Of a stretch of 64,000 bases of DNA, positions 21,991 to 60,219 are shown one piece after another. How positions within the stretch are numbered: position 1 is the stretch's first letter; every line of letters begins with the position of its first letter. The notes beneath the pieces are model-generated. The model saw only the letters and a program-made list of their open reading frames with translations. It did not search any database and was not told the DNA's origin. The stretch covers positions 84,717 through 148,716 of the IMG/VR virus record IMGVR_UViG_3300024999_000040; one strand, written 5' to 3'. A program made the translations under genes and the position numbers. The DNA comes from a virus.

Positions 21991-22010
21991 AACTCACTTC
22001 CTTGTATATT

Positions 22011-47199: not shown

Positions 47200-48432
47200 C
47201 TAACCTACCTTTCTCCTCTCAGTTAATAAACTTTTTCTTCTCTCAATTAATTTGAAAGATTTACAATTAACACTACCTTTGTTTACTTTAGTACCATCTA
47301 AAGTTCTAATATCAAAGAAACCAGTGTTTCTTCTTCCAAAGATATAATATAGCTTCCCTTGGTATTGAATCTTATCAAATAATCTAAACCCTTTTACCTC
47401 AAATTGCGCTTGATTTAACTTCTTAATTCCACATTTTAATATATTCGCTTTATGGATCTGTCTGTTGTGGCATCTTACTTTCTTATAAAAGTAATAATAG
47501 TTTAATCTTTTAACTAATGGATTGCCACTTATACATAAAGCATCAATCCTATGTTCTTTTGGTAATTTATTCTCAATTCTTGTATTCTTAGTTATATAGC
47601 CATAAGTTAATGTTACATTAGGATATATTTCTTTTAACTTATTATAAAATGCCCAACGCATTATTCCCATAAAAGCCGCATCTTTGAATGATTTACCACG
47701 CTTTAAATTTAATTTCAATTTGCCATTATGATAATCTTCATGACATTCTTCACATAAGGTAATCAGATTACTTGGTGCATCTCCACCAGTTTTTCTTGAT
47801 TCAATGTGATGTACATTTAATATTTTATTCTTACATCCTTTTTTGCCTTGACATTTATGCCCATCTCTAAATAGTACATACTCACGTACATTCCAGAAAT
47901 CTAATTGATTGCCTTGTTGATATTCTTTTCCTTGTATTTCTGGATTATTTATTTTCTGTATATCAAAACTTGCTACTTCAACTATTATTTTAGATATAGG
48001 TAATATCTTATAAATCTTATCAACAATACTTAAATGTGTTTGTATTTTGTTTTCAATACTAGGTGCCAGCCATCCTTTGTTTTTACTACCAACACGATTT
48101 AAAAATCTAGGTTCCCTATATCTTAATCTATTTCTTCTAGTACGTCTATTTTGTCTGCGTGTAGAAAGCAAATCCACAATATCATTTCTTAATTCAACTT
48201 CTGATGAATATAGTTCTTGTTTTTCAGTAGTAGCAGATAAGCCTATTACTTTGCTTCCTGCGTCAATACCTAATGTAATATCTTGAACTTGATTCTCACA
48301 TTCAAAAATTAGTTGAATAGTGAATGGTTCTTTTTTAACAACTCTTGCCAGACTGTCTCTGAGCAATTTTCTTGCTTTTGCTTCTTTGCAAGGCATTATA
48401 GGTTTACCTTGAATGTTTAATACATATACCAT
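47200..48432 (-). CDS. iscB: IscB RNA-guided endonuclease
   Basis: PIMP (PLMP domain), LGIDAGSK RuvC-I, RRQNRRTRR bridge helix, IIVE, HHI...SNLITLCEECH HNH, HRIDA RuvC-III. Confidence 0.95.
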   Translation of the reverse strand: MVYVLNIQGKPIMPCKEAKARKLLRDSLARVVKKEPFTIQLIFECENQVQDITLGIDAGSKVIGLSATTEKQELYSSEVELRNDIVDLLSTRRQNRRTRRNRLRYREPRFLNRVGSKNKGWLAPSIENKIQTHLSIVDKIYKILPISKIIVEVASFDIQKINNPEIQGKEYQQGNQLDFWNVREYVLFRDGHKCQGKKGCKNKILNVHHIESRKTGGDAPSNLITLCEECHEDYHNGKLKLNLKRGKSFKDAAFMGIMRWAFYNKLKEIYPNVTLTYGYITKNTRIENKLPKEHRIDALCISGNPLVKRLNYYYFYKKVRCHNRQIHKANILKCGIKKLNQAQFEVKGFRLFDKIQYQGKLYYIFGRRNTGFFDIRTLDGTKVNKGSVNCKSFKLIERRKSLLTERRKVG

Positions 48433-48667: not shown

Positions 48668-49275
48668 CGTCTTTTTCCTTTGCATAATTATTTTTTAGCC
48701 AATCCTTGATATACCTTACTGTTTCTTCAAATTCAGTGAAGTACATTTTATGATCTATGGATGAATATATGTTTACTCCACTTCTTATAATATTAAAATG
48801 ATATATTTTAGTTACTGTTAACATACGTACATAAATCTTCAAATCATAATATTTAGCAACCCAAAGAGGATAAATTTTGTTTCGTTTTGCTCGTATAAAC
48901 TGCATTATTATACCTTTGTTTAATTATTTATTATAAATTATAATATAATTATGCAGTTTACACAATCGCAAAATTCGACAAAGTTATGTCAACTCTTTTA
49001 TTAAAAATGTCCTCTTAAAATCCTTCGATATTTTATGTAAATTGTCTTCCAAATTTTTGACAATGCCTTTTGCTTCTTCCCTTGATTTACAAAAAATCAA
49101 TGGAGCTATCACATCAGCATAACTAGTATAATTCCATTTACCATCATCTGAGTTGTACCACAAAGTATATTTGTCTACATACTGCCCTTCATTGTCTTGG
49201 ATTGTGAAAAATTGATTACATCTAATCATGATTTTTACCTCTTCTTTCTCTATTTTTTTTTGTAATATTTACATA

Positions 49276-49367: not shown

Positions 49368-49396
49368 ATCATACGCGAACACTTGTTCTTTGTCAA
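49368..49396 (-). promoter_or_regulatory. sigmaA promoter containing a LexA (SOS) box
   Basis: TTGACA-17-TATGAT; CGAACACTTGTTCT at 49376-49389 (Firmicutes GAAC-N4-GTTC). Confidence 0.75.
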
Positions 49397-49502: not shown

Positions 49503-49554
49503 TATTATCTCTATATTATCTCTATATTATCTCTATATTATCTCTATATTATCA
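49503..49554. repeat. 11-bp tandem repeat, four full copies plus a partial
   Basis: (TATTATCTCTA)x4 then TATTATCA. Confidence 0.9.
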
Positions 49555-49595
49555 TATTACTATATTTCCTTAATTATGTAAATAGGTATTACTAC

Positions 49596-50549
49596 CTATT
49601 TATGGGATTTAAACACTAAATAATTTTCCTTTAGAAGCCCCCATGTCTCAGGATTCATACCTGAAATTTTCAAAACCTCATGATAGTCTAATCGTCCTAG
49701 TTCACCTTTTTCAGATTCAATCTTTTCTAGTTTTTCAAACATTCCTGAATAAAAAATATTTGTCGAATTAATGTAGTATTTTTCTGTCCATTTTTTTATT
49801 TTATCAAATTTTACATAGATTCCATGATCACTTATAGCATCCCCTACAGTATTATGCATTTTTATAGGTCTTATTACATATGGAGAATCCATTAATTTTC
49901 TTGTTGGGGCTTTAGCTTCAGATTCACCATTATTGTTATAATATATATCTTCTTCTATTGCTTCTTTAAGTATATCCATTGTCCGTTGATCTATATTTGC
50001 AATAATTCTTGGATTATTACTATAACGCACTTCAATGAAATTACTAATAAATTTAACATCTTGTTTTTCAAGATAACGCACTTCCTTCATTTCTTCACCG
50101 TTAAGTCCTTCATAAAATGAAACCAACAATGCTCTATCGACTGGATTAGCGAGTTTATCACACAATTCATATAATTCATCTCTATTCTTTATATGTTGAT
50201 TACTAGCTGCATCCTTGTTAATATATAATTGTAAATCCTTTCTAAATATATTCATAAAAGCTGTATTAGGACTACAATAACCTTTTTTTGTTACCCATTT
50301 AACATATTGTTTAGCATAATGAAAATTTCTTCCTAGAGCATTAACAGTGGGACAGTTCATATATCGTAACATATCTTTTACTTGGTCTTCATTAAAATCA
50401 TATAAATCTTTTTTAAAACTTTCTTCTACTTCTGCTATCTTATCAAAAGTATTTACTATTGTTTTTTGAGTGTCTACATCATAATAAAATTTGTCAATAA
50501 ACATTTTTTTGGTTTCTTTTGAAGTTTCTTTATTATATGAATTATACAT
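49596..50549 (-). CDS. MrpR/YopR-like repressor (degenerate tyrosine-recombinase fold)
   Basis: E...KKDLYDFN N-terminus; LLVSFYEGL in place of TGxR; no HxxR; NIFYSG; follows a YopQ-like gene as in SPbeta. Confidence 0.7.
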   Translation of the reverse strand: MYNSYNKETSKETKKMFIDKFYYDVDTQKTIVNTFDKIAEVEESFKKDLYDFNEDQVKDMLRYMNCPTVNALGRNFHYAKQYVKWVTKKGYCSPNTAFMNIFRKDLQLYINKDAASNQHIKNRDELYELCDKLANPVDRALLVSFYEGLNGEEMKEVRYLEKQDVKFISNFIEVRYSNNPRIIANIDQRTMDILKEAIEEDIYYNNNGESEAKAPTRKLMDSPYVIRPIKMHNTVGDAISDHGIYVKFDKIKKWTEKYYINSTNIFYSGMFEKLEKIESEKGELGRLDYHEVLKISGMNPETWGLLKENYLVFKSHK

Positions 50550-51885
50550 TTATAACACCTACCTTCTTAAAATGCTCACTGATTTTTTTAATTAAAGAAT
50601 TATTGATCTTATCACTAGATATACCAACAGATTTCCAATCATAATCATTAGAAAAATCAATAGAATTCAAAATATTTTCCAATAATTCTTTCCAGTTTTC
50701 TTCTTTAATTAATATTGAAACAAGTGCTACATAACCAATAAATATATTATTTTCAAAAATTACACTGTTTTCTTTTGTATATTTCTTTTTAAGAGTAATT
50801 AAAATTTTATTAAAGCATCTAATTAAAAAATCTTGTGCTTCTTCTATTTCCTCCGCATTTTCAAATTTTCCAAAATTATATCTAATAGCCTTTTTTAAAG
50901 TTTCAATAGTAGTGAATTTTCCTTGTACTTTTAAATCAGAATCATCTTCAGCAATTTTGTAATACATCTCATTTTTAGTTGAATTACCATATTCATTTAT
51001 TTCTTTAATCATTAATACATTTTCATCTCTGTTGTCATATCCTTCTCTATGACTTTTTTGCATAGGGGTAGCTTTTTCTTCTCTATTTAGATAAGATTGC
51101 GCTCTCAATTCACTAAAATTAAATATTTTAATATGAAAATATCCAGGATTACTTGGATTTTCACTTATACACCTTTCTGCCGCTAACCATCTATGCATTC
51201 CATCAATTATATCAAGATAAGTATTTTCATTGTCTATCCATATAGTTAAAGTTCTGTTTTTCTCATTGTATTCAAATTTTTGTTCACGATTAAGTTTTCG
51301 TATATTTAAAGATAACATATTGGCTTCAAAATTAGTTTCCATCATTTCAGCTATATCTATGATCTTATTTTGATTTATAGTCGGCATTTTTTGATATTCT
51401 CCACCAAACGAAACTAAAGTAGGTTCTCTTTGAGTTCTTTCATTATAATATAATAATCCTTGACCTCTTAATGCTTTCATTTCAGGATAAGCAAATCTTG
51501 GACATAAATATTCAAAATCAGAAGTTTTAGATACATCATAAAAAATAACTACATCGTTTTTATAATGCTCGTCTTCTTCCTTTTTATATTCATTGTATGC
51601 TGTAATTTCAAGAGGATTAAACCAATCATTAGGATTAATCCTTTCATAAGTGGTAGTTTCATATAAAGCCTTTACAAATAAATACAAAACTTCATCTGAA
51701 ACACTAGAAATTAAAACTTTATCTACACCATACATTCCTGTGATTGTTCCAAGATTTATATTATGTTTCTTTAGTGAGTCTAAAATATACTCTCTATTTT
51801 TCCACTTGTTCTCTTTTGATTCTTTAATCGCTTTATACAGCGTAATTTCAAGTTCTTGTCTGTCTTTTTTCATTTTTATAATCAT
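50542..51885 (-). CDS. DGQHR/DndB-like ParB-fold protein (SPbeta YopQ-like)
   Basis: YNERTQR...IIDGMHRW; 447 aa; overlaps the start of the MrpR-like gene. Confidence 0.65.
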   Translation of the reverse strand: MIIKMKKDRQELEITLYKAIKESKENKWKNREYILDSLKKHNINLGTITGMYGVDKVLISSVSDEVLYLFVKALYETTTYERINPNDWFNPLEITAYNEYKKEEDEHYKNDVVIFYDVSKTSDFEYLCPRFAYPEMKALRGQGLLYYNERTQREPTLVSFGGEYQKMPTINQNKIIDIAEMMETNFEANMLSLNIRKLNREQKFEYNEKNRTLTIWIDNENTYLDIIDGMHRWLAAERCISENPSNPGYFHIKIFNFSELRAQSYLNREEKATPMQKSHREGYDNRDENVLMIKEINEYGNSTKNEMYYKIAEDDSDLKVQGKFTTIETLKKAIRYNFGKFENAEEIEEAQDFLIRCFNKILITLKKKYTKENSVIFENNIFIGYVALVSILIKEENWKELLENILNSIDFSNDYDWKSVGISSDKINNSLIKKISEHFKKVGVINV

Positions 51886-51912
51886 TCCCTTCTGACATAG
51901 TTTTACGTATGT

Positions 51913-51941
51913 ATTATAACATGATTATTCTCAGAAGACAA
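51913..51941 (-). promoter_or_regulatory. sigmaA promoter for the yopQ-like/mrpR-like pair
   Basis: TTGTCT-17-TATAAT with TGn. Confidence 0.65.
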
Positions 51942-51984
51942 GATTTTTATAACAAAATTATTATTTCCCTTTAATTAATAATAA

Positions 51985-52656
51985 TTACACAGCATATTGT
52001 AATCTTAATACTTTTTGTGGAGAAGTTATAATTTTATCATTATTATATTCCTTTAGCATTTGTAAATAATTTTTACCATAATCATTGCAATAATCAATTA
52101 CATCTCTTAATAACAACTCTCGTGCAAACATCAATCCTTCATTTGATATTTTTTTAGCACAGGTATTAACGCTTACATAAGCAGCAATCATTTTTCTTAA
52201 TATTACAGGATTAAAACACAAATCAATCATACCTAATTCTTTCTTTAGTGCTGATTCAACTTGTTTCATTGTAGCATCACTTATCTGACCTACTTTAATC
52301 AATTCTCCACCAATGAGTAACCTTCTCTTAGATATACACCTTGTTTGTTCAATTATAGATACCGATTGCTTGTATAGTCCTGTATCAGTCTCAAGAAATA
52401 CATGAGTAGGAAGATATGAACCTTTATCAGTTTGTGTCGTAAGAGGACATCCAACAATAGTAGAACTTTTTTCATTTCCCTTGTTATTTTGGGTAATTAA
52501 AAAAGGCCTTATACCTCCCTGTTCTTGATCAAGAACAGTACCCAAATCAACCATGTAAATTTCTCCACGTTTAACTTTAAGGTTAATTAAATCTTGAACA
52601 TTATTAGTCCTTGTATTTATATTTGTAATATAGTTCCTTGTTAATACTTTTGTCAT
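51985..52656 (-). CDS. mazF: MazF/PemK endoribonuclease with C-terminal extension
   Basis: KRGEIYMVDL...EQGGIRP...QNNKGN...PLTT...HV...EQTRCISKRRL. Confidence 0.88.
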   Translation of the reverse strand: MTKVLTRNYITNINTRTNNVQDLINLKVKRGEIYMVDLGTVLDQEQGGIRPFLITQNNKGNEKSSTIVGCPLTTQTDKGSYLPTHVFLETDTGLYKQSVSIIEQTRCISKRRLLIGGELIKVGQISDATMKQVESALKKELGMIDLCFNPVILRKMIAAYVSVNTCAKKISNEGLMFARELLLRDVIDYCNDYGKNYLQMLKEYNNDKIITSPQKVLRLQYAV

Positions 52657-52695
52657 TTGAAAAAATTACGCTCCTTTATTTTTTGATATGTACAC

Positions 52696-52724
52696 ATTAT
52701 ACTACAAATATATTTATTTGTCAA
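52696..52724 (-). promoter_or_regulatory. Consensus sigmaA promoter directly upstream of mazF
   Basis: TTGACA-17-TATAAT. Confidence 0.8.
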
Positions 52725-52830
52725 CAGTATTAGTATATTTATTTTGTTAAAAATAATATACCAATAAAACTCATCTTTTATTGTCCTCCTTTTTCTTTTA
52801 TCTTCTGCAACCTTTCCTGATATTGCGCGG

Positions 52831-53127
52831 TTAATCAAATTCCTCTTCATCGTAGTATTCATCATCTTCTGCTGTGTTTGCTTGATATATGTCGCGATGT
52901 ACTGCGGTGACGTTTTCAACTGGAACTTTTAATTGCGAAGCTAATATTTTTGCGTTTGATTTTGAATGCTCTAAAAACCTTTCTGCTGTAAAAGCTTCGG
53001 CGTTAACTGCCATGTCGTATTTCATTTCCGCATACCCTTTGTGTCCAATCCCGCCATATATCTCTGCGTCTTTAATTTCATAAAAGAAATGAACTGTAAA
53101 ACATCTTAAATCTTCCATAATCCTCAC
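52831..53127 (-). CDS. Hypothetical protein with acidic tail
   Basis: Ends EDDEYYDEEEFD; visibly more GC-rich than its neighbours. Confidence 0.6.
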   Translation of the reverse strand: MRIMEDLRCFTVHFFYEIKDAEIYGGIGHKGYAEMKYDMAVNAEAFTAERFLEHSKSNAKILASQLKVPVENVTAVHRDIYQANTAEDDEYYDEEEFD

Positions 53128-53163
53128 ATTTCTGCGGTATTACACCCGCGCATTCTTTTTATA

Positions 53164-54084
53164 TTATACATTAGTTTTCTTTTTATATGGTATTTTTCCC
53201 GCCATTGCTTTTTGACGCTTTTCAGAAGCATGAAGATATATCTCTGTAGTAGATAATTTGGAATGACCAAGAGCTTCTTGTATAGATCGTAGGTCTGTAT
53301 CTTGTTCAAGTTGTAAAGTTGCATAAGTATGTCTTAATATATGCGGAGTGAAATTCTTTAATCCTAGCATATCTTTGTACTTATTTACCAAGTACCTAAT
53401 ACTGTCGTAAGATAACGGATAAGGCTCTTTTTCAGTATAATGATAAATTACAAACACATTTTTATAACTGGTTTGTGGTCTTATTAATAGCCAATTATTA
53501 ATAGCTTCAATAGTATCATCATCAATAAATATAACTCTATCTTTATTACCTTTAGCTTCTCTTAAATGTACTCTATCATTTCGTATATCATCTAATTCTA
53601 AATCGCAGATTTCACTAACACGCATTCCAGTGTTTAAAAATAGTTTTATGATAGCAATATCTTTTTCATTTCCTTCTTTTTCTACTGCTTCAATTAATTC
53701 ATTTGCAGTTTCAAGATGTAAATAATTTCTAGTTTTTTTAGGTAACTTTGGTTTTTTGATTTGTAAAGCTAAGTTATTATTAATTAGTTTTCTATCATTT
53801 AAGTAATTAAGTAATGACCTCAAACACGAAACTTTCCTGCTTTCTGTGCCAGCATCGTTATTTAAAGTTAATCTCCATTCTATAGTGTCCTCTAATGTTA
53901 AATTTTGAAATATATCAATAGTAATTATATCAGTTTTTTTATACTGTTTTAACCAATTACAGAATGCACATAAAGTACCTCTATAAGATATAATTGTTTT
54001 GTCGCTGGCTTTATTAACAATCATAGATTTTAGAAAATTCTCTATGAAAGTTGATAATGTTAAATCTTTTTTCTGTTTTACCAT
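53164..54084 (-). CDS. XerC/D-like tyrosine recombinase
   Basis: TGMRVSE (R), KGNK (K), PHILRH (HxxR), LGH, TTEIY (Y) all intact. Confidence 0.93.
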   Translation of the reverse strand: MVKQKKDLTLSTFIENFLKSMIVNKASDKTIISYRGTLCAFCNWLKQYKKTDIITIDIFQNLTLEDTIEWRLTLNNDAGTESRKVSCLRSLLNYLNDRKLINNNLALQIKKPKLPKKTRNYLHLETANELIEAVEKEGNEKDIAIIKLFLNTGMRVSEICDLELDDIRNDRVHLREAKGNKDRVIFIDDDTIEAINNWLLIRPQTSYKNVFVIYHYTEKEPYPLSYDSIRYLVNKYKDMLGLKNFTPHILRHTYATLQLEQDTDLRSIQEALGHSKLSTTEIYLHASEKRQKAMAGKIPYKKKTNV

Positions 54085-55688
54085 TTAAAATCACTCTCCC
54101 TATAAAACCAGAATTTTATTGCCTACATTTTATCATTCTTGGCTTATCAACTGAATATATTTTACCACATTCACATTTAACTTTCTCTGCATCAGTAGTA
54201 TAAATAAAATAAGCCTCTAGTTCTTCCATACAATTTTCGCATCTAAATTTTAATATCATATACCAACCTTCTTTATATTATTATATCAATTTACTTTAAT
54301 TGTGTCAATAACATTTTTGTTTTTAAAAGATTCTTCTGTGTGAAAACTTTTGCATGTTGTTGCATCATATAAAGCCAATCCATCAGGTTTACAATATTCA
54401 GTATTATATAAATAGCATTTCCCTTTACATACTTTATCAAGTAATTCTTCTTTACTAATCATTATTTCCATTGGTTTATTCATAATTTGCTCTTTATAAC
54501 ATTCTAGTGCTTTGTTAAAACCTTCTTTATATCCATCAAAATATCCTTGCTGATAAAATTCATGATGTTTTATTGCCTCTCCCATAATAAATTCTCCTTA
54601 ATATAAAATCTACATTTTATTTTAATTCAAAAACATAATCTTCAATTCCATTTAAGAACTCTGTTGATATATTATCCAATGAATTGACTTCCCAAATATA
54701 ATATACACACTTAGCATCTACGCTTCCAAAAATTAATCTTGCATCAACATTAAACTGTATTTTTGCAAATATTGATATATTCTTATCTTGTATTTTTTCT
54801 ATATTTATTGCAATAAACAAATATCTATTATTATTAATTTTAATCCACTCGCTATTCCCTTTAATTCTCATTTAAACAACCTCCTAAAAGTATTCAAAAT
54901 GTCTATTTTGTTGCCCTACATTTCTCACTTAACTCTTGTTCTTGTTTCCACCATAGTTCTATGTGATTGGCATATTTAGCAAGTTTATAATTTATATTTT
55001 TATTAATCAATATTTCTTTTAAAATTTTGTTTCTAACCACATTATAATATATTATCATATTAATCAATCGATTCTGGTAGCATAGTATCCATATCTATTG
55101 GAGGTAAATTTATAGAGCCACAATAATCCTCGTAATTCAATGGACAACTCTTACAATCCAAACCCTTATCTGATTTAATTCTTTCACAAATTTCTTCTCT
55201 TGCTTGCGCTATATTTATTAATCTTTGTCTTAGATATTTTTTATCTCTTTTAGTTAACATCTTAGCACCTCGTATTCTTAAATCGCACTAACAAAATTAT
55301 CTCTCAACTTGCAATCATTTGGTACATAAGATTCTATTACTTTTAACACGTCTTCCATCATTTTTATAGATTGATCACGTTCTATACCATATAAACTTCT
55401 GAGTTTACCAATAGATATCTGTCCTAATAGACATAAACCCATAACCTCAAAATGATTAAGGTTACTAATATTAAGAGGTAATTCATGTAGATATTCAATT
55501 TCTTTACTGTGATTATAATAATCCATGATTATTTTTCTTCCTCTCCAATTTCTTTATAAGCAGGGCAATCCACTACCCAAGGAGTCATTTGATATCCATC
55601 ATGCTTGATGTAAATAGCACAGACACACATTTTACCTGTAAGATTACATTTAATAGGATGTAACTCTTTATCTTTGAGAATATTTGCA

Positions 55689-57047: not shown

Positions 57048-57743
57048 AAATGTTCACAACCCTTTATTTTCTTTAAACCTAATGCTTGCATGATACCTAT
57101 TGTTCAACACATAAATATCATGATTCTCAATGTCATTAAATACTTGTTGTATTGCCATCGGTTTATTTTCATAAACTTTATGCAAGTGAAAATCTGGTTT
57201 ATCTATTTTAAACATATCATAGTAATCTTTAACATTAATAGTACTTATACTCATATTTAAATGAAATAAATGTTCTTTATTATCTGATAATACCAATATC
57301 CAATGACCAAACCTAGATACAATACTTGCTACTTGATTCTCAATATTATATGAATATCTGAATATCTTACATTTTTGCTTTATTTTATTGTTTCGTTGCA
57401 ACTTTTGATTACGAGTAAGATATTGAAGAACGATATTCAAAATATCGGCAATCAAACAAAAGTATTGACATTCTCTAGCTTTAGTTAATCCTATAAGCAA
57501 ACCATTTTCAAAAGAATTATAACACCAAGGATAAAATATGCCACCAATATTAACATTTTTATAAAAATAACAATTACAACATTTTTTCATTTAAAATTAT
57601 TTCCTCAATCACCTTTATAATATTTATCCAACGTCTTATCTTTCATTCTCACACCTATTACATCCTGCACAAGAAAAGCATAAAGTTTGAGGTAAAAATT
57701 GTGGATATTGTTTCATTAAATTCCTCCACATAATTTAAGTATT

Positions 57744-60024: not shown

Positions 60025-60219
60025 TTATATATCCAATCTTTCATCCAAATCTTTTCTTCTCTTTAAATAAAAACCATTTTCAACCACAAATACTTCAAAT
60101 GCGGGAGCATTATTACTTTCCTTTGTAGACATCCCAAATTCTCTTCTAAGGGTCTTAGGTATTACCACCCTACCCAAATCATCCATTCTACGTATATAAC
60201 CTTCTGAGTTTGTATCCAT
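60025..60219 (-). CDS. AbrB/SpoVT-family DNA-binding protein
   Basis: GYIRRMDDLGRVVIPKTLRR. Confidence 0.85.
   Translation of the reverse strand: MDTNSEGYIRRMDDLGRVVIPKTLRREFGMSTKESNNAPAFEVFVVENGFYLKRRKDLDERLDI

Follow-up and report, generated by a model that had tools for sequence, protein, structure and literature searches.

The closest described relatives of the locus treated here are the lysis/lysogeny switches of the phages phi3T and SPbeta. Bacillus subtilis MazF cleaves RNA at the site UACAU, and in phi3T the host MazF is reported to degrade phage messages, to spare the sro operon and to promote lysogeny (PMC10769878; 10.1101/2023.04.27.537455; 10.1101/2025.11.27.690993). In phi3T and SPbeta, the LexA-controlled antirepressor gene sar adjoins sroF (10.1101/2025.11.27.690993). 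Two studies from 2024 showed that phi3T makes its lysis/lysogeny choice through manipulation of the host MazF, which may be a peculiarity of one Bacillus phage or a general principle. Here, a mazF gene located inside a YopQ-YopR cassette of the SPbeta type is described in a stretch of viral DNA of 64,000 nucleotides, referred to as the window. The window forms the final 64 kb of a 148.7-kb viral contig from IMG/VR (IMGVR_UViG_3300024999_000040) with a completeness of 76% (CheckV), has a G+C content of 28% and carries nearly all of its genes on the minus strand. The hosts of this phage and its relatives appear to be low-GC anaerobes rather than Bacillus.

The window shares with the phi3T/SPbeta operon sroA-F (yopM-R) the order YopQ/SroE-YopR/SroF, preceded by a tyrosine recombinase, as well as a LexA-box promoter with a small gene after the repressor, as for sar. 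In addition, cassettes of the window type share with it a MazF-family RNase tied to the switch and repressor genes that are poor in UACAU. Unlike in phi3T and SPbeta, which use the host MazEF, MazF is phage-encoded and lies within the cassette itself. The preliminary description had noted no aimR or aimP in the window, and a tblastn search of the whole contig extended this: no relative of AimR, AimP, AimX, YosL, phi3T_92-94 or YopM/N/O was found (best E-value for AimR/AimP 0.18), a further difference from phi3T and SPbeta, and since the contig is about 76% complete, the absence of AimR/AimP from the phage is not proven. The best explanation, held tentatively and with a probability of roughly 0.45, is that the cassette does, with a MazF owned by the phage and without arbitrium, what the MazF arm does in the SPbeta/phi3T switch, and that properties of the toxin rather than a linked antitoxin keep it in check. 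It is based on gene identities, synteny, catalytic residues and fold, conservation of a C-terminal tail and depletion of UACAU; from these we infer the direction of the effect on lysogeny and the functions of the tail and of the C-terminal domain (CTD).

A mazF gene beside the yopQ and yopR homologues

The genes of the cassette are arranged on the minus strand in the order recombinase, 98-aa gene, mazF, yopQ, yopR, LexA-box promoter and 81-aa gene, and the five genes from recombinase to yopR are those given, in the same order, in the preliminary description. The 447-aa protein encoded at 50542..51885 (minus strand), a DGxHR, DndB/ParB-like protein, matches SPbeta YopQ almost end to end (24.8% identity over residues 18-444, E 4e-12), as well as CST029 of phage c-st (E 3e-25) and phrog_5732 (8e-59), and its relatives match PF14072. 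The 317-aa protein encoded at 49596..50549 (minus strand) matches MrpR_N_CB (PF22822, 2.9e-16) and the MrpR/YopR structures 8A0A (1.5e-9) and 9RD5 (5.7e-11), which would make it the integrase-fold master repressor YopR/MrpR/SroF. YopQ/SroE lies immediately 5' of YopR, and the two genes overlap by 8 nt. By these sequence comparisons, the flanking genes are true YopQ and YopR/MrpR homologues, as the preliminary description had proposed from the letters of the window. The tyrosine recombinase (53164..54084, minus strand) is intact, as had been noted, and has a Phage_integrase domain (PF00589, 1.6e-32), a SAM-like domain (6e-07) and H-x-x-R and Tyr motifs near its C-terminus. It is 36% identical to the recombinase in the same position of locus L006 (L-numbers denote the viral loci that were compared, L001 being phage Perkons, and P-numbers related proteins). 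Its pairwise match to SPbeta YopP has an E-value of 0.044, so that on sequence it is a positional counterpart of YopP/SroD for which orthology with YopP is not demonstrable.

The mazF gene itself (51985..52656, minus strand) encodes 223 aa. The PemK/MazF domain PF02452 covers residues 29-139 (4.3e-24, 85.2 bits against a cut-off of 23.1), the structurally characterized MazFs 4HKE, 1NE8 and 4MDX are matched at 1e-18 to 1e-19, and the identity to the Bacillus and Staphylococcus MazFs is 38-39%. The catalytic residues named in the preliminary description were found to be kept: Arg50 (GGIRP) and Thr73 (PLTT) are invariant in the alignment and correspond to Arg25 and Thr48 of B. subtilis MazF. In the AlphaFold2 (AF2) model, the core has a predicted local distance difference test score (pLDDT) of 80-90, and Foldseek aligns it to 4OF1, 1NE8 and 4MDX with template modelling (TM) scores of 0.85-0.88 and E-values of about 1e-11. 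The window MazF is thus predicted, from sequence and model, to be a catalytically intact phage-encoded enzyme, to which we would ascribe RNase activity and a cleavage motif by likeness to its relatives. With the MazFs of B. subtilis (EndoA, of the EndoA/EndoAI pair; 4MDX, 4ME7) and Staphylococcus aureus it shares the core, the fold, the catalytic Arg and Thr and similar RNA-binding loops. Unlike chromosomal MazEF systems, it is encoded without an adjacent MazE and from its own promoter within a phage repressor operon, and unlike chromosomal MazFs, it adds a 25-residue leader, a three-helix CTD and a conserved tail.

The leader (residues 1-25) and the core (residues 26-146), which contains Arg50 and Thr73, are encoded at 52219..52656, the CTD (residues 147-212) at 52021..52218 and the tail, ending in ..LQYAV, with the stop codon at 51985..52020, all on the minus strand. 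The extra C-terminal segment, put at roughly 70 residues in the preliminary description, thus comprises about 77 residues past the core, in which helices are predicted at 150-169, 173-192 and 197-205 (AF2, pLDDT about 90), followed by the disordered tail. The CTD is common to the window MazF, P0001, the MazFs of L030, L034 and L048, and the c-st group. Exhaustive phmmer searches with the CTD returned only the window CTD itself and P0001, and the atlas entries that it matched are generic helical hairpins. No Pfam family was matched by the CTD, the 98-aa protein, the N-terminal domains of relatives or a 117-aa gene. Among 5.8 billion proteins, P0001 is the closest relative of the window MazF (55% identical) and the sole close one; with the single window MazF as query, no close viral relative was found. 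Another combination of domains was seen in P0033 and P0041-P0047 (about 346 aa), in which the antirepressor-type domains Bro-N (PF02498) and ANT (PF10552) are fused to the MazF nuclease (PF02452).

The association of mazF with yopQ and yopR has been observed in many other phages. In c-st, the order is CST027 (MazF, 220 aa), CST028, CST029 (YopQ) and CST030 (YopR), and on four metagenome contigs P0001 is encoded between a recombinase and the DndB/YopQ-MrpR genes. A search of IMG/VR with a YopQ alignment, followed by a hidden Markov model scan for MazF, gave 33 viral loci bearing YopQ; in 21 of them a MazF of 218-292 aa is encoded 0.1-1.9 kb 5' of yopQ-yopR, and the 12 most distant loci have the recombinase, YopQ and YopR without MazF. 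In the reverse test, YopQ or YopR was found within 6 kb in only eight of 80 viral MazF loci, and six of these eight account for all the loci whose MazF is long and bears the tail. In Perkons, an SPbeta-sized Psychrobacillus phage, MazF lies 10 kb from the yopPQR genes. The synteny in c-st, the P0001 contigs and the 21 loci indicates that MazF belongs to the cassette as a fixed component across a broad clade. Neither a loss of synteny in relatives nor flanking genes unrelated to YopQ and YopR, two of the outcomes named in the preliminary description as speaking against its proposal, was found. No DNA-level match to the cassette was obtained with blastn among 50,697 phage records, and a profile search of genome contigs with the YopQ alignment yielded no confirmed locus. 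Full-text searches of the literature retrieved no paper on a phage MazF adjoining yopQ/yopR. The additions of the present analysis are the conserved MazF tail, the CTD and the reverse synteny test.

Among the described phages, c-st shares with the window the MazF-CTD-tail architecture 5' of yopQ-yopR (CST027-CST030), with 25% identity over residues 25-209 of MazF. It differs in the extra gene CST028, of the HxHLQR family, between MazF and YopQ, and in its variant of the tail, NNMV[AS]xx[CY]. In its record, the genes are named only (MazF-like, hypothetical, YopQ and YopR homologues), and no functional reading of them was found in the literature searched. The window and L048 represent the minimal form of the cassette, into which relatives insert AgrB with a polytopic membrane protein, a second short MazF, a TPR protein or an HxHLQR-motif protein. 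AgrB, a polytopic membrane protein of about 265 aa, small open reading frames (ORFs) and a second short MazF occur between the recombinase and yopQ-yopR in L014-L023, L033, L034, L049-L053 (e.g., L019:1378-10366) and L006:3878-5371, and AgrB of L014 matches PF04647 at 2.7e-33. These relatives carry an Agr-like peptide cassette where SPbeta has arbitrium, all of which is absent from the window. They share with the window the repressor core and the MazF subfamily with its tail; the window is without AgrB, the membrane partner, the second short MazF and the helix-turn-helix (HTH)-like N-terminal domain. The 237-aa product of a gene at L030:6708-7421, which overlaps mazF at its end, matches TPR_2 (9.7e-06) and TPR_12 (1.1e-05) below the threshold and might serve as a sensor of a different kind in this slot. 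A family with an HxHLQRxY motif and no Pfam family (L006:6509-6862; L002:6835-7491) has members encoded between mazF and yopQ both in c-st (CST028) and on the P0001 contigs (pairwise E 6e-05); a weak, possible relative (pairwise E 0.006) was seen in the window at 57054-57590, 3 kb upstream.

The C-terminal tail and the antitoxin question

Nearly all cassette MazFs, whatever their length and divergence, share a similar C-terminal tail, with ..[VI][AS][YF]A as its conserved pattern, which is absent from ordinary MazFs. Examples are NNVAYA(N), QVAFA, RVASFA, IQYA, LQYAV in the window and NNMV[AS]xx[CY] in the c-st group and Perkons. A terminal [YF]A(x) was found in 15 of 25 cassette MazFs as opposed to one of 698 other ORFs of the same loci, and in a wider comparison in 20 of 33 cassette MazFs as opposed to none of 52 non-cassette viral MazFs (Fisher 4e-11). 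Within the phage contig, MazF is the sole carrier of the tail. In Perkons (L001:6001-6558, ORF37/ORF38), the MazF core runs directly into a tail ending in ..NMALSAC, and an in-frame stop and 24 nt separate it from a 56-aa ORF homologous to the CTD, so that the helical domain is separate. This arrangement indicates that the tail goes with the nuclease and needs a free end. The split in Perkons itself could be natural, a read-through site or a sequencing error.

The tags added by the ssrA system end in ..ALAA, and this likeness would point to a degron in the tail of the cassette MazFs, with a docking peptide as an equally possible reading. Neither a phage ClpP nor a transfer-messenger RNA was found in the contig. 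The degron idea opens up an "inverted" toxin system, which we regard as possible though doubtful: the phage would do without an antitoxin because MazF itself would be short-lived, its tail delivering it to a host AAA+ protease, and a burst of transcription would produce a brief pulse of RNase that erases the UACAU-rich lytic messages and spares the UACAU-poor repressor messages, as an arbitrium-free timer of lysis and lysogeny. If so, the helical CTD, or the HTH-like, Agr or TPR modules of relatives, would tune the pulse. Toxins are the controlled or labile part in the type VI toxin-antitoxin system SocAB and the fused toxin-antitoxin CapRel. With these the cassette shares analogy only and no homology; a free-standing labile antitoxin is lacking in it, and control is suggested to reside within the toxin polypeptide.

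A linked gene of the MazE type was sought with PF01402, which gave no match. No ORF lies between the mazF promoter and the mazF start codon, where the preliminary description had seen no mazE. A 64-aa gene with an AbrB/SpoVT/MazE fold, located at 60025-60219 (minus strand), 7.4 kb from mazF, matches PF04014 at 15 bits, below the cut-off. As an antitoxin candidate it was discarded, since it does not keep its place relative to MazF, the relatives in L030 and L006 lying elsewhere. The other candidate is the small protein encoded at 52831..53127 (minus strand), which has 98 aa and an aromatic tail that is acidic, as the preliminary description had noted. It is predicted to be a small alpha/beta protein with a disordered tail (AF2, pLDDT 84) and belongs to no Pfam or PHROG family. 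Four relatives were found, one of them in an ERF/SSB/DnaB replication module without MazF nearby, and the family is absent from all other MazF cassettes. A GY-x-EM...EAF motif in the protein recalls the segment with which YosL, AimX and EndoAI bind MazF; the motif is predicted by AF2 to form a beta-strand and not a helix. Kinship with MazE, AimX or YosL was rejected, since a profile of the 98-aa protein finds no such PDB chain at E-values up to 10; as a control, a YosL profile readily finds AimX (8ANV) and EndoAI (4ME7). Fold searches gave no clear match, with a best Z of 4.4, and T4 Dmd (Z 3.8) is tied with unrelated proteins.

Complex prediction with two MazF cores and the 98-aa protein gave a weak score of 0.40, compared with 0.01 for the best of three controls; the runs agree in at least 84% of contacts, and the pLDDT of the 98-aa partner is at least 69. 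The mark for this score is reached by 58 of 80 solved complexes and two of 110 mismatched pairs, and the passes at 0.60 or below comprise seven of the 80 solved complexes and both passing mismatches, so that a pass at this score is more often wrong than right. The 98-aa protein is therefore only a weak candidate for a MazF binder on the basis of modelling. The term "orphan" used for this MazF in the preliminary description fits to the extent that no MazE-family gene is linked to it, and is qualified by the weak prediction of 98-aa binding. Of the proposed routes of control, the 98-aa protein is left with that weak prediction, and in the C-terminal extension the conserved tail points to a kind of control beyond those proposed.

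UACAU sites and the explanations of the cassette

The distribution of UACAU was compared between loci with and without MazF. Among the non-identical genes of MazF-bearing loci, yopR contains 11 UACAU where codon shuffles predict 24.8, with none in eight of 17 genes, and yopQ contains 26 where 31.4 are expected; the neighbouring genes have 2.36 UACAU per kb. In MazF-less loci, no depletion was observed in yopQ/yopR. In an unbiased scan of pentamers over 13 representative MazF-bearing loci, TACAT ranked second of 706 for depletion in yopQ and yopR (25 observed, 71 expected from neighbours), behind only the TAA-containing AATAA. The small gene after the LexA box contains at least one UACAU in 11 of 12 loci and in the window. 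Throughout the phage genome, UACAU occurs at 1.83 per kb, compared with about 1.6 per kb expected from composition. The depletion in the repressor genes fits the phi3T logic of the host MazF, here in a phage-owned form. A comparison of motif depletion between lysogeny and lytic genes had been suggested; with UACAU as the assumed motif, depletion is seen in the repressor genes across the MazF-bearing loci and is not significant in the window alone.

In the preferred explanation of a phage-owned MazF arm, the cassette would be the lysogeny-control core of an SPbeta-like phage, with YopQ/SroE and YopR/SroF followed by an SOS-controlled small gene. The phage MazF would be made from its own strong promoter and would cut sites of the UACAU type, whose frequency in the other genes of the phage is ordinary. 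The site-poor yopQ and yopR messages would survive, repressor synthesis would be favoured, and the phage would be pushed towards, or held in, lysogeny. The part played by the host MazF in phi3T would in this way have been moved onto the phage, without arbitrium. Restraint of MazF would probably not come from a linked antitoxin of the MazE type and more likely from the free C-terminal tail and the helical CTD, to which the 98-aa protein encoded just upstream may add. The preliminary description had proposed such an internalized RNase switch; the YopQ/YopR homology, the synteny, the catalytic residues and fold and the UACAU depletion support it, and the recombinase corresponds to YopP in position only. 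In a whole clade of large phages that appear to infect low-GC anaerobes, among them relatives of c-st, which converts its host to botulinum toxin production, the MazF-family gene lies within the phage's own repressor operon, and the repressor genes are largely cleared of the UACAU site. If the explanation is true, selective mRNA cleavage would be a general, portable part of SPbeta-type switches. It would also provide a compact MazF without antitoxin whose control can be dissected through tail and CTD, with the conserved tail as a concrete handle.

Several observations weigh against this explanation. In the window, yopQ has no UACAU and yopR has one, against about 1.4 expected in each, which is uninformative; with an expectation of about four for the two genes together, the single site is likewise not significant, and the whole cassette has five in 4.2 kb. 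About six lineages are represented among the 13 loci, and the depletion statistics therefore overstate independence. That UACAU is the motif of the window MazF is an assumption from its 38-39% identity to the Bacillus and Staphylococcus enzymes, and a UACAU-specific MazF of the host may explain the depletion equally well. The long MazF of L018 (L018:6081-6893) has His at the position of the catalytic Arg (GGIHP) and may therefore be inactive or altered. Some relatives differ from the window in having an N-terminal HTH-like domain or a second MazF. Finally, a constitutively promoted toxin without antitoxin must be tolerated somehow.

An unlikely, though by no means far-fetched, alternative is that mazF is a prophage-borne defence moron, expressed by the lysogen as an abortive-infection or superinfection-exclusion RNase, with the locus serving merely as a region expressed in lysogeny. 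In its favour, mazF has its own consensus promoter inside a lysogeny-type operon, and PHROGs class such genes as morons; MazEF restricts phi3T and SPbeta mutants lacking their antitoxin (10.1101/2023.04.27.537455), and a nuclease at work in the lysogen is also consistent with the site depletion in the resident repressor genes. Morons usually vary in place, however, whereas the position right 5' of yopQ is fixed across very divergent phages, the signalling genes (AgrB, the TPR protein) between MazF and the repressors of relatives suggest a regulatory circuit, and UACAU is not avoided in the lytic genes of the phage itself. The defence reading is compatible with that of a phage-owned MazF arm. 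An addiction pair, in which the 98-aa protein or the CTD would be an unrecognized antitoxin and post-segregational killing would stabilize a plasmid-like or weakly integrated prophage, is rather improbable. Phage c-st persists as a plasmid prophage, which suits this idea, as do the acidic tail, the GY-x-EM...EAF motif and the antitoxin position of the 98-aa gene, the weak complex score and the separate ORF for the CTD in Perkons. Yet the 98-aa family is missing from other cassettes and has a relative in a MazF-less replication module, a PDB search with its profile retrieves neither MazE nor AimX nor EndoAI and its motif lies in a strand, a promoter separates its gene from mazF, and the conserved tail is on the toxin and not on the putative antitoxin.

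Phage-encoded RNases for host shut-off exist, and the strong, constitutive-looking mazF promoter, together with a short life of the enzyme, if that is what the tail means, would agree with a brief role early in infection, in which decay of host mRNA frees ribosomes and nucleotides and the position of the gene is incidental. This is nevertheless very unlikely: UACAU depletion is confined to the repressor genes, and since the phage genes as a whole are not depleted, such a MazF would strike the phage's own lytic messages. Least probable, and hardly credible, is a non-toxic RNA- or protein-binding regulator, for example a repressor scaffold, whose nuclease function is lost in practice. The lack of an antitoxin, the extra domains (the CTD and, in relatives, the HTH-like N-terminal domain) and the His at the catalytic Arg position in at least one relative (L018) would agree with it; however, Arg50 and Thr73, with the loops around them, are unchanged relative to active MazFs, the TM scores of the core point to the same fold, and UACAU depletion is hard to explain without cleavage.

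Promoters and neighbouring genes

Promoter-like sites are common in the AT-rich window, with 40 found where 44 are expected by chance, so that only perfect matches carry weight. The mazF promoter is such a match: a 12/12 consensus TTGACA-17-TATAAT at 52696..52724 (minus strand), 40 nt 5' of the ATG, in agreement with the consensus promoter noted previously. Its spacer contains a perfect palindrome, ACAAATA-N4-TATTTGT, at 52704-52721, which is unique in the window at zero mismatches; with up to two mismatches, two sites were found in the window compared with 2.96 expected, which is not above chance. The promoter reported before yopQ was also located, as a weaker 10/12 site with TG at 51913..51941 (minus strand), within the 99-nt gap 5' of that gene. 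A 12/12 sigma-A-type promoter with TG lies 5' of the recombinase at 54280..54308 (minus strand) and has the spacer motif TTAACTAAG. It belongs to a family of consensus promoters with this spacer, found on the minus strand at 22007, 27746, 34366, 43430 and 54276 (also 39762, 46460 and 62128), and the mazF promoter is of a different type. Just 5' of the mazF promoter, at 52739-52774 (minus strand), an 11-codon hydrophobic micro-ORF, MSFIGILFLTK, is preceded by the strong ribosome-binding site AAAGGAGG.

About 200 nt past yopR, at 49368..49396 (minus strand), where phi3T has its SOS-controlled sar promoter, lies a TTGACA-17-TATGAT promoter; its spacer contains GAAC-N4-GTTC, which resembles a LexA box, and five relatives have this box at the corresponding place. 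Behind the promoter, the 81-aa gene (48984..49229, minus strand), which contains one UACAU, is 39% identical to the gene in the same position of L006 and is by its position a candidate Sar-like antirepressor. Between the end of yopR and this promoter, at 49513-49565, four tandem copies of the 11-bp unit ATATTATCTCT (plus strand) were observed, which could be operator or iteron-like sites. Further on, at 47200-48432 (minus strand), an IscB-like RRXRR (PF14239, 3e-64) and HNH protein is encoded between the genes downstream of the cassette and a 3D-domain gene, and the neighbours that flank this insertion in the window are contiguous in L006.

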